From positions 5,280,001 through 5,344,000 of the forward strand of contig OZ242214.1 of assembly GCA_965206595.1 (NCBI GenBank): 64,000 bases of DNA, in the 5' to 3' direction. The number at the start of each line of letters is the position of its first letter. Position 1 is the stretch's first letter. This document shows positions 51,215 through 51,598 of this stretch, one piece after another. A model generated the notes under the pieces. That model was not told the DNA's origin. It saw only the letters and a program-made list of their open reading frames with translations, and ran no database searches. A program made the translations under genes and the position numbers. Origin of the DNA: Candidatus Latescibacterota bacterium. Its GTDB lineage: Bacteria > Latescibacterota > UBA2968 > UBA8231.

Positions 51215-51598
51215 ATGATGTTCAACAAGATCCGGACCGCGATAGTCGCGGTCGCAAGCAACCCCGTCGCGGTGGTGAAGGACGCCATGGAGTCCGCCGC
51301 AAAGGCGATCGAAGCCACCCTCGACGGAACGTTCCTCGGCGAGTTCATCATGAGCGAGAGCGGCCGGGTGAACCCGGAGCAGGGTTTCCGGCTCGCCTGG
51401 GGAGCGGGGGTGATCGTCGCCGCCATGGTCGTGCTGGGCACGCCGCCCCAGGCGGCGGCCCACCATTGCAAGAACTATTCGTATCTCTATTGTGACTCCA
51501 CCGCGCAGTGCCAGGCGTGGTGCCGGGTTGCGAAGGGCTGCTGGGGGGGCAGTTGTACAACTCACTGTGCGGAGCACACAGAGTGTCGTTGCAGTTAA
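51215..51598 (+). CDS. Cys-rich defensin-like precursor with a pilin-like leader
   Basis: AGGAGG RBS. Leader 'FIMSESG|RVNPE', hydrophobic stretch, 'PPQAAA', then a 45-aa core with 9 Cys. Confidence 0.8.
   Translation: MMFNKIRTAIVAVASNPVAVVKDAMESAAKAIEATLDGTFLGEFIMSESGRVNPEQGFRLAWGAGVIVAAMVVLGTPPQAAAHHCKNYSYLYCDSTAQCQAWCRVAKGCWGGSCTTHCAEHTECRCS

Follow-up and report, generated by a model that had tools for sequence, protein, structure and literature searches.

A prepilin peptidase-like gene kept alongside multicopy precursors of predicted defensin-like peptides in a Latescibacterota family: a candidate hybrid secretion leader

What would a prepilin peptidase cut in a bacterium whose genome yields neither a pilin nor a pilus ATPase? 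In this study, we have analyzed a stretch of 64,000 nucleotides (the window) from a Candidatus Latescibacterota bacterium (assembly GCA_965206595.1, contig OZ242214.1, positions 5,280,001 to 5,344,000), in which a gene for an A24 (GxGD-type) aspartyl peptidase of 362 amino acids (50013..51101, + strand; PF01478, E 3e-10) is followed, after a gap of 113 bp, by an open reading frame (ORF) of 127 amino acids (51215..51598, + strand). The initial annotation of this ORF had read it as the precursor of a defensin-like peptide whose leader carries two successive processing sites, a Flp-pilin-like site and a signal peptidase I (SPase I)-like AxA site. Its protein agrees letter for letter with the ORF translation, and the span that it assigned to the leader, 51215-51460, corresponds exactly to residues 1-82, with the Gly at position 50, the Glu at 55, AAA at 80-82 and the His at 83. 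The analysis reported here suggests that an A24 peptidase has been re-used to process secreted peptides in bacteria without pili.

The precursor can be divided into three parts. Its leader (residues 1-50; 51215..51364, + strand) ends in G-E-F-I-M-S-E-S-G50, that is, in F44-x-x-x-E48-S49-G50, and the A24 peptidase is proposed to cut after G50. Residues 51-82 (51365..51460, + strand) comprise the polar stretch RVNPEQGFR, 16 uncharged residues (LAWGAGVIVAAMVVLG) and TPPQAAA82, and can be read as the n-, h- and c-regions of a signal peptide with a putative SPase I site after A82. The remainder (residues 83-127 and the stop codon; 51461..51598, + strand) is a cargo of 45 amino acids, with nine cysteines in the arrangement CxxxC...GxC...CxC. 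The precursor matched no Pfam or NCBIfam model at E 0.1. As read from the nucleotide sequence, a Shine-Dalgarno-like element, GAGGAGGA (51204..51211, + strand), lies ahead of the ATG, its GGAGG (51206-51210) leaving a gap of 4 nt; M25 is an alternative start that would give a leader of 26 amino acids, and the GGAGG before 51215 favors the long form.

Relatives of the precursor were collected by a word-based search, which gave 26, and by a full HMMER scan of 1.84 billion representative sequences, which gave 45 clusters at E 0.001; the counts that follow refer to an alignment of 62 relatives, from which P0023-P0026 (truncated) and P0031, P0032 and P0048 (short partial matches) were left out. G50 is the only invariant column of this alignment (62/62) and is also kept in more distant loci beyond the 62 aligned. 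It is surrounded by F44 (55/62), E48 (58/62), Ser or Thr at position 49 (61/62) and V52 (57/62), and further conserved columns are W62 (61/62), G75 (56/62) and P77 (58/62). Conservation of the site motif is far beyond chance. The initial annotation had described both Gly(-1) and Glu(+5) of a Flp-type site as kept; the former was borne out by this alignment and the latter was not, position 55 being Glu in only 30 of 62 relatives and otherwise Arg (15), Gln (10), Lys (6) or Gly (1). The AxA site fared well, with A82 in 60 relatives and position 80 occupied by Ala in 50, Val in 4, Ser in 4 and other residues in 4. Between the two sites the spacing is almost fixed: A82 lies 32 residues after G50 in 59 sequences and 31 residues after it in the remaining 3. 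Positions +1 to +9 after G50 hold one to three Lys or Arg and one to four charged residues in every sequence, position 57, directly before the h-region, is always Gly (44), Ser (11) or Ala (7), and positions +10 to +25 are free of polar or charged residues in all 62. Because this arrangement provides a positive, K/R-bearing n-region, an uncharged h-region of 16 residues and small residues at -3 and -1, residues 51-82 look like a complete Sec signal peptide.

The leader and signal core is under purifying selection. Since synonymous sites in the cargo are saturated, the ratio of nonsynonymous to synonymous substitution rates (dN/dS) of the cargo was uninformative, and the proportions of nonsynonymous (pN) and synonymous (pS) differences were used instead: pN was 0.06 to 0.34 in residues 40-84 versus 0.40 to 0.53 in the cargo, with pS of 0.31 to 0.83 in the core. 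Upstream of the Gly, the leaders range from 13 to 57 amino acids, with 25 or fewer in 35 of 62, a net charge of -5 to +1 and a longest hydrophobic run of at most 10 residues. As most relatives have 18 to 25 residues before the Gly, the 50-residue leader of the window precursor is taken to be a clade-specific lengthening. In one relative (P0049, locus L012) the site motif occurs twice in tandem (LLTSESGVVQPFLANESG), which hints that long leaders are born by partial duplication. Two other signal types were considered and rejected. Several relatives have RR near the N terminus, as in Tat signals; the h-region then begins only after about 18 partly charged residues, and RR is absent from many members, the window precursor among them. 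A lipoprotein signal, suggested by members with AAA-C, is out as a general reading, with usually one or two residues between A82 and the first Cys.

The association between precursor and peptidase extends well beyond the window, where both genes belong to a cassette with thioredoxin-like and CBM9-like genes. The source genome (one contig, 7.05 Mb, 92.9% complete) carries a second full cassette, consisting of a TlpA-like gene, an A24 gene, a 137-amino-acid precursor (SESG/EVSAKQ, the slash marking the candidate A24 site; +5 is Lys) and a CBM9-like gene. A truncated cassette lies at about 597 kb in this genome and a cassette remnant near 2.09 Mb, and all A24 matches in the genome fall in a cassette or a cassette remnant. 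The same cassette was found in a Candidatus Latescibacterota metagenome-assembled genome, and loci from other genera contain an A24 gene, an FMN_bind-like gene, two thioredoxin genes and one or several precursors in variable order. Within the phylum, precursors are confined to the family of the window organism. When 76 genomes of this family were scored, 28 had an A24 gene and 30 had precursors by a wider profile; both were present in 28, A24 alone in none, a precursor alone in 2 and neither in 46. The adjoining A24 gene to which the initial annotation had drawn attention is therefore a constant neighbor, as precursors accompany it in 28 of 28 A24-bearing family genomes. Presence is patchy inside genera (20/31, 5/10 and 1/2), and these kin are not independent of each other. 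At the level of individual genes, 131 precursor matches were set against 61 A24 matches, and 32 precursors lay within 3 kb of an A24 gene, 30 at 3 to 10 kb and 17 at 10 to 40 kb.

A second A24 clade, with about 33% identity, likewise lies among leader-bearing ORFs, one of which has a different cargo: in this relative the leader precedes a Cys-rich cargo of about 280 amino acids whose C-terminal end is a FlgD_ig domain (E 1.2e-11), with weak matches to type IX secretion C-terminal models, below cut-off, at that end. The leader is therefore best regarded as a portable tag and not as part of the defensin domain. A word-based search for longer proteins with residues 36-84 of the window leader retrieved no such protein from 16 candidates, which is weak evidence, and long cargos do occur in divergent forms.

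Decayed copies were also seen. The truncated cassette at about 597 kb (L008) has an A24 gene cut at 170 amino acids behind two thioredoxin genes, and the remnant (2,086,379-2,091,477) retains the C-terminal half of an A24 gene and a cargo-less leader ORF (DDAG/YVSPRR...ADA/H, slashes at the candidate sites); transposase-like ORFs adjoin both. A 90-amino-acid frame elsewhere in the source genome (6475746-6475946, + strand) matched the profile only over the cargo (positions 48-110, E 1.6e-4; leader hidden Markov model, E 1.2); it may represent a Cys-rich relative without a leader, or the match may be due to chance. In relatives, many precursor matches are interrupted in frame by one or two stop codons (TGA, TAG or TAA) and there are up to 16 matches per genome, which together suggest rapid birth and death of precursor copies. 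A frameshift seems to interrupt the A24 gene of one relative (L005, 6801-7667, with its continuation in a shifted frame).

The peptidase itself appears to be intact. Its Pfam score was 40.9 bits against a cut-off of 26.5, and the Pfam scan reported no methyltransferase domain in the 362-residue protein. We found 73 homologous A24 clusters, some of which are named prepilin peptidase or "Flp pilus assembly protein protease CpaA" in their sources. D40 and G99-D100-x-K102, the latter within the motif (A/S)(M/P/L)GD(A/G)K, are invariant in 21 of 21 aligned homologues; D40 and D100 are the catalytic Asp residues expected of the family. In a VIA-wide structure search, the best match to an AlphaFold2 (AF2) model of the protein (predicted local distance difference test [pLDDT] score, 75.1) was FlaK (3s0x_B; Z 12.2, root mean square deviation 3.5 A, 171 of 186 residues), which was the only chain among 48,161 with Z of at least 8, the next chain having Z 7.0. 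Foldseek with the same model returned only noise, and phmmer found no match for the A24 protein among PDB sequences at E 1. Archaeal-type C-terminal models matched far below their cut-offs (Arc_PepC_II, E 0.049; EppA, E 3.5e-4). Judged by its conserved residues and predicted structure, the window A24 protein should be an active enzyme of the FlaK/TadV type. A complex prediction from the A24 alignment and precursor residues 30-92 scored 0.15 against a mark of 0.32, which speaks neither for nor against binding.

Genes that such an enzyme would ordinarily serve were not found in the source genome. The Pfam models Flp_Fap, N_methyl and T2SSE each gave 0 matches there, and the controls gave theirs; for T2SSE (PF00437) all 52 candidates were scored, and for Flp_Fap there was no match in the genome even at E 1 and none to the window precursor itself at E 0.1. 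Over the phylum, Flp_Fap (PF04964) exceeded its cut-off in 0 of 168 genomes, with a positive Caulobacter control, and a T2SSE match was absent from 24 of the 28 A24-bearing family genomes (22 candidates scored per genome) and present in 4. Because the source genome is without pilins and a pilus ATPase, the A24 peptidase has no filament to serve. The proposal in the initial annotation that the product might be anchored to a pilus is very unlikely, given that no assembly ATPase was matched in the source genome. Two SPase I genes were found in the same genome.

For the cargo, the initial reading of the C terminus as defensin-like was upheld at the level of the fold. An AF2 model based on 26 homologues had pLDDT scores of about 50 to 65 in the leader and 84 to 89 in residues 91-127, where it placed a helix (96-107) and two strands (112-117 and 121-126). 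Among the Foldseek matches listed within ranks 1 to 50, all were plant defensins or brazzein, scorpion toxins or peptides, or cystine-dense peptides, with probabilities up to 0.99 and a best E of 0.066, none reaching 0.001; the VIA-wide structure search, which is independent of Foldseek, placed the plant defensin Ah-AMP1 (1bk8) first (Z 5.0, root mean square deviation 2.5 A, 43 of 50 residues). The family profile gave weak matches in the PDB to the same defensin-type proteins (best E 0.51). The cysteine expression for bacterial cis-defensins taken from the text of PMC11561630 fits 49 of 62 cargos, and the window cargo fits it by eye. These scores are individually weak, as for a small domain, and all are concordant, so that the cargo is predicted to adopt a cysteine-stabilized alpha/beta (CS-alpha/beta), defensin-like fold. 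Most relatives (43 of 62) have eight cysteines, against nine in the window cargo, whose odd ninth Cys could remain free or link two molecules. Net charge runs from -8 to +3, is negative in 46 of 62 cargos and is +1 in the window copy.

How do these parts fit together? We propose that the gene product matures into a defensin-like peptide that is secreted and rich in disulfides. Residues 51-82 would act as a Sec signal peptide, inserted with its N terminus in and its C terminus out, and cleavage by SPase I after A82, on the outer face, would liberate a free Cys-rich domain of 45 amino acids; formation or shuffling of its disulfides would then fall to the two TlpA-like thioredoxins encoded in the cassette. 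On the cytoplasmic face, the cassette A24 peptidase would cut after G50, as prepilin peptidases do after Gly(-1), and would thus serve the precursors instead of a filament; a possible purpose of this cut is the gating of export or release, or the clearing of a long signal peptide. We rate this hybrid leader, in which an A24 enzyme removes a cytoplasmic extension after G50 and SPase I cuts after A82, as an even call; both cuts, with their positions, order and purpose, and the biological activity of the peptide, we infer. A wider proposal is somewhat more tentative. It can be envisioned that A24 peptidases have a second, pilus-independent life, serving, in a bacterial family largely devoid of pili, in the dedicated maturation of hybrid signals that combine a class III-type Gly with a Sec/SPase I region and tag arrays of secreted peptides and proteins that are hypervariable and rich in disulfides, the two cuts excising a near-invariant membrane peptide of 32 residues. 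The excised peptide could be functional itself, for example as a gate or a signal.

Several observations weigh against this proposal. According to the passages of PMC4471445 that define it, a class III signal has a hydrophilic or neutral leader of 6 to 26 residues with a terminal Gly, a predominantly hydrophobic tract of about 21 residues directly behind that Gly, and Glu at position 5. Gly(-1) is present in 62 of 62 relatives; however, the hydrophobic tract begins at +10 and not at +1, has 16 residues and not 21, and is preceded by charged residues at +1 to +9. Glu(+5) is found in fewer than half of the relatives (30/62), the window leader has 50 amino acids against the 6 to 26 of that source, and the curated Flp_Fap and N_methyl models are without a match. 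The precursor family is consequently not a member of class III or of the Flp group, the hydrophobic tract being absent from its place and the Flp model silent. The idea in the initial annotation of a pilin-type signal on a non-pilin cargo thus holds in part: it fits the genomics, with no pilins or assembly ATPases and a defensin-like cargo, and it does not extend to the Flp_Fap model or to a hydrophobic tract after the Gly. The loss of Glu(+5) does not in itself refute a cut, since the same passages describe Gly(-1) as critical for prepilin processing and Glu5 as dispensable for it. In addition, 52 of the 131 precursor matches have no A24 match within 40 kb (33 have one farther away and 19 lie on contigs without any), a second small residue at position 57 offers an alternative A24 site, and it is not evident what would be gained by cutting within an n-region when SPase I would remove the whole signal peptide anyway. 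Finally, the cargos are not cationic, as mature cis-defensins are expected to be, so that an antimicrobial role cannot be assumed.

Of the alternatives, the one that survives best is a plain, long Sec signal, in which SPase I alone would remove residues 1-82, the ESG motif would act in targeting, translocation timing or regulation, and the A24 protein would have some other role, such as another substrate or an immunity-like protection. The textbook h- and c-regions, a site that falls outside the class III definition and the 52 precursor matches away from any A24 match all speak for it, as does the selection of the published bacterial cis-defensins for ordinary signal peptides in the text of PMC11561630. 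On the other hand, it leaves unexplained why an n-region should be strongly constrained around one invariant Gly, and it must accommodate an A24 enzyme with invariant catalytic residues that occurs together with precursors in 28 of 28 A24-bearing genomes, where no other candidate substrate was seen; the remaining cassette proteins begin with plain anchors or signal peptides. We consider a plain Sec signal unlikely.

It is also conceivable, if rather improbable, that the A24 peptidase cuts after G57 (Q-G/F-R-L-A-W), which immediately precedes the hydrophobic stretch, as in archaeal class III signals, with G50 as part of the recognition element. Position 57 is always small, follows a stretch rich in Arg, Lys and Gln and has an uncharged stretch at once after it, and the peptidase resembles archaeal FlaK and has the weak, below-cut-off Arc_PepC_II and EppA matches given above. 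Against this, it is G50 that is invariant and position 57 that varies, and the +2 residue of the window copy would be Arg; moreover, the F..E[ST]G context of G50 is reminiscent of the leaders of Flp pilins.

A cut after G50 without any SPase I cut would leave residues 60-75 as an inner-membrane anchor for the peptide, and its defensin-like domain would be displayed in the periplasm. Processed pilins are held in this way before assembly, as described in passages of PMC4471445, and the invariance of the membrane helix could mean a lasting function. We nevertheless think an anchored product very unlikely: nearly every sequence conforms to the -3/-1 rule and has Pro at -6 and Gly at -8, the h-region has just 16 residues, and the FlgD_ig cargo with its weak type IX sorting matches would need periplasmic release.

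A bacteriocin leader of the double-glycine type, processed by a C39 peptidase/ABC exporter, would account for a conserved leader on a hypervariable cargo, a small residue pair at the site and the Glu and hydrophobic residue at -8/-7, and the source genome does have one C39 peptidase gene; that gene is about 840 kb from the window and unlinked to any cassette, a Sec-type h/c-region would be pointless for ABC export, and position -2 is Ser or Thr and not Gly, so there is very little chance that this explanation is correct. The possibility that the precursor is a genuine Flp/Tad-type pilin, forming filaments and bearing a defensin-like head, is close to refuted, for beyond the Gly(-1)/Glu(+5) of the window copy and the adjoining A24 gene it has against it the missing T2SSE matches (0 in the source genome and none in 24 of 28 A24-bearing relatives), the 0 of 168 genomes with Flp_Fap, the lack of conservation of Glu5, which is needed for assembly, and the lack of a hydrophobic N terminus after the cut.

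The precursor lies in a cassette with several other genes. The first gene of the window cassette (48251..48907, + strand) encodes a membrane protein with a weak FMN_bind-like C terminus (Pfam FMN_bind, E 0.053, below cut-off); its counterpart in a relative's cassette gave E 0.003, also below cut-off, and the same gene position is occupied in L005. It is followed by two TlpA/ResA-like thioredoxin genes, one for a membrane-anchored protein with CGAC, a CxxC motif (48885..49445, + strand; AhpC-TSA, E 1.4e-11; Redoxin, E 1.1e-06; ResA subfamily, E 3.7e-11), and one for a protein with CPYS, a CxxS motif (49436..50038, + strand, start approximate; AhpC-TSA, E 7.3e-10; ResA subfamily, E 6.4e-09). The CxxC/CxxS pair beside the weakly FMN_bind-like membrane protein may constitute a self-contained oxidative-folding module. 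Downstream of the precursor, 51771..52661 (+ strand) encodes a secreted CBM9-like protein, assigned by an atlas score of 0.97 to clusters in which 37%, 13% and 94% of members carry PF06452 (CBM9_1); it had no match in Pfam at E 0.1. This gene is the constant downstream member of the cassette, and paralogues lie 3' of the precursor in L002, L005, L032 and L033. A tandem duplicate (52810..53691, + strand) forms direct repeats with it of 88 to 89% identity at a spacing of about 1035 bp, the duplicated units (51639-52665 and 52680-53695) comprising the CBM9-like gene and about 130 bp of upstream region. All cassette copies of the CBM9-like protein keep the C terminus ...SW[AG]RIKA[SA]L..., which resembles a signal for sorting or anchoring. 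A PIN-domain protein on the opposite strand (54230-54730, - strand; E 1e-10) is probably the product of a VapC-type toxin gene unrelated to the cassette. Scans of 47800-52000 found no promoter-like site; terminator-like sites numbered 2, with 2.3 expected, and an Rfam scan of 47000-55000 at E 0.1 matched no family.

To our knowledge, prepilin peptidases are regarded as the core of type IV filament machines, and the known non-pilin substrates, archaeal binding proteins for example, still feed such machines. The A24 enzyme described here retains its catalytic residues in genomes that have neither pilins nor assembly ATPases, and multicopy precursors always accompany it. A full-text literature search, in which most papers were covered at the level of the index, returned no link between a prepilin peptidase and defensin-like or cysteine-rich secreted peptides, and the combination described here, namely, a putative A24 site in a class I signal and a multicopy, hypervariable, disulfide-rich cargo with its own thioredoxins in a lineage largely without type IV filament genes, is new to the literature searched, to Pfam and to NCBIfam. 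If the cut is real, it would reveal a new way of processing secreted peptides and provide a new sequence tag with which to find them, and it would offer a natural test case for A24 recognition, the usual hydrophobic tract at +1 being absent. The precursors come packaged with their own oxidative-folding genes, which is of practical interest for peptide discovery. They also add predicted defensin-like peptides from a candidate phylum that the survey text of PMC11561630, in the portion bearing on this point, does not name.

The system proposed here shares features with several known ones. Like Flp/Tad prepilins and their TadV/CpaA peptidases, it has small precursors, a leader that ends in an acidic residue, a small residue and Gly, and a nearby A24 protein without a methyltransferase domain. 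Unlike them, it has no Flp_Fap match, no hydrophobic tract after the Gly, no conserved Glu5-Tyr6 and no Tad ATPase or platform protein, and the precursors continue with an SPase I site and a Cys-rich domain. Another parallel is provided by the archaeal substrate-binding proteins with class III signals (the bindosome, processed by PibD-type enzymes), for which passages of PMC4471445 and PMC13705601 describe non-pilin cargo and a conserved N terminus with diverse C termini; the peptidase in the present case is likewise FlaK-like. Bindosome proteins, however, have a canonical class III site and a filament ATPase and platform, whereas the precursors described here have a second, class I site and no such machinery was found with them. 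With respect to cargo, the likeness is to the bacterial cis-defensins, which the text of PMC11561630 presents as five classes (actifensins) with 74 members in three phyla, chosen with an ordinary signal peptide as a criterion: both have a CS-alpha/beta cysteine pattern, a predicted fold of that type and small secreted precursors. The Latescibacterota-type cargos differ in having mostly eight cysteines and an anionic to neutral charge, and the sections of PMC11561630 that describe the cis-defensins mention no peptidase partner. In its overall organization, with a conserved leader, a hypervariable disulfide-rich cargo and many copies (up to 16 matches in one genome), the family is reminiscent of double-glycine bacteriocins and conotoxin-type precursors, from which it differs in peptidase class and export route.

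A further likeness is to signal peptide peptidase (SPP), a member of the presenilin/SPP group of GxGD proteases (family A22). SPP acts on a membrane segment with its N terminus in that is also a signal peptidase substrate, and the A24 peptidase described here may likewise be a GxGD protease acting on an N-in signal peptidase substrate; SPP cuts within the membrane after signal peptidase has acted, whereas A24 enzymes cut at the cytoplasmic border.

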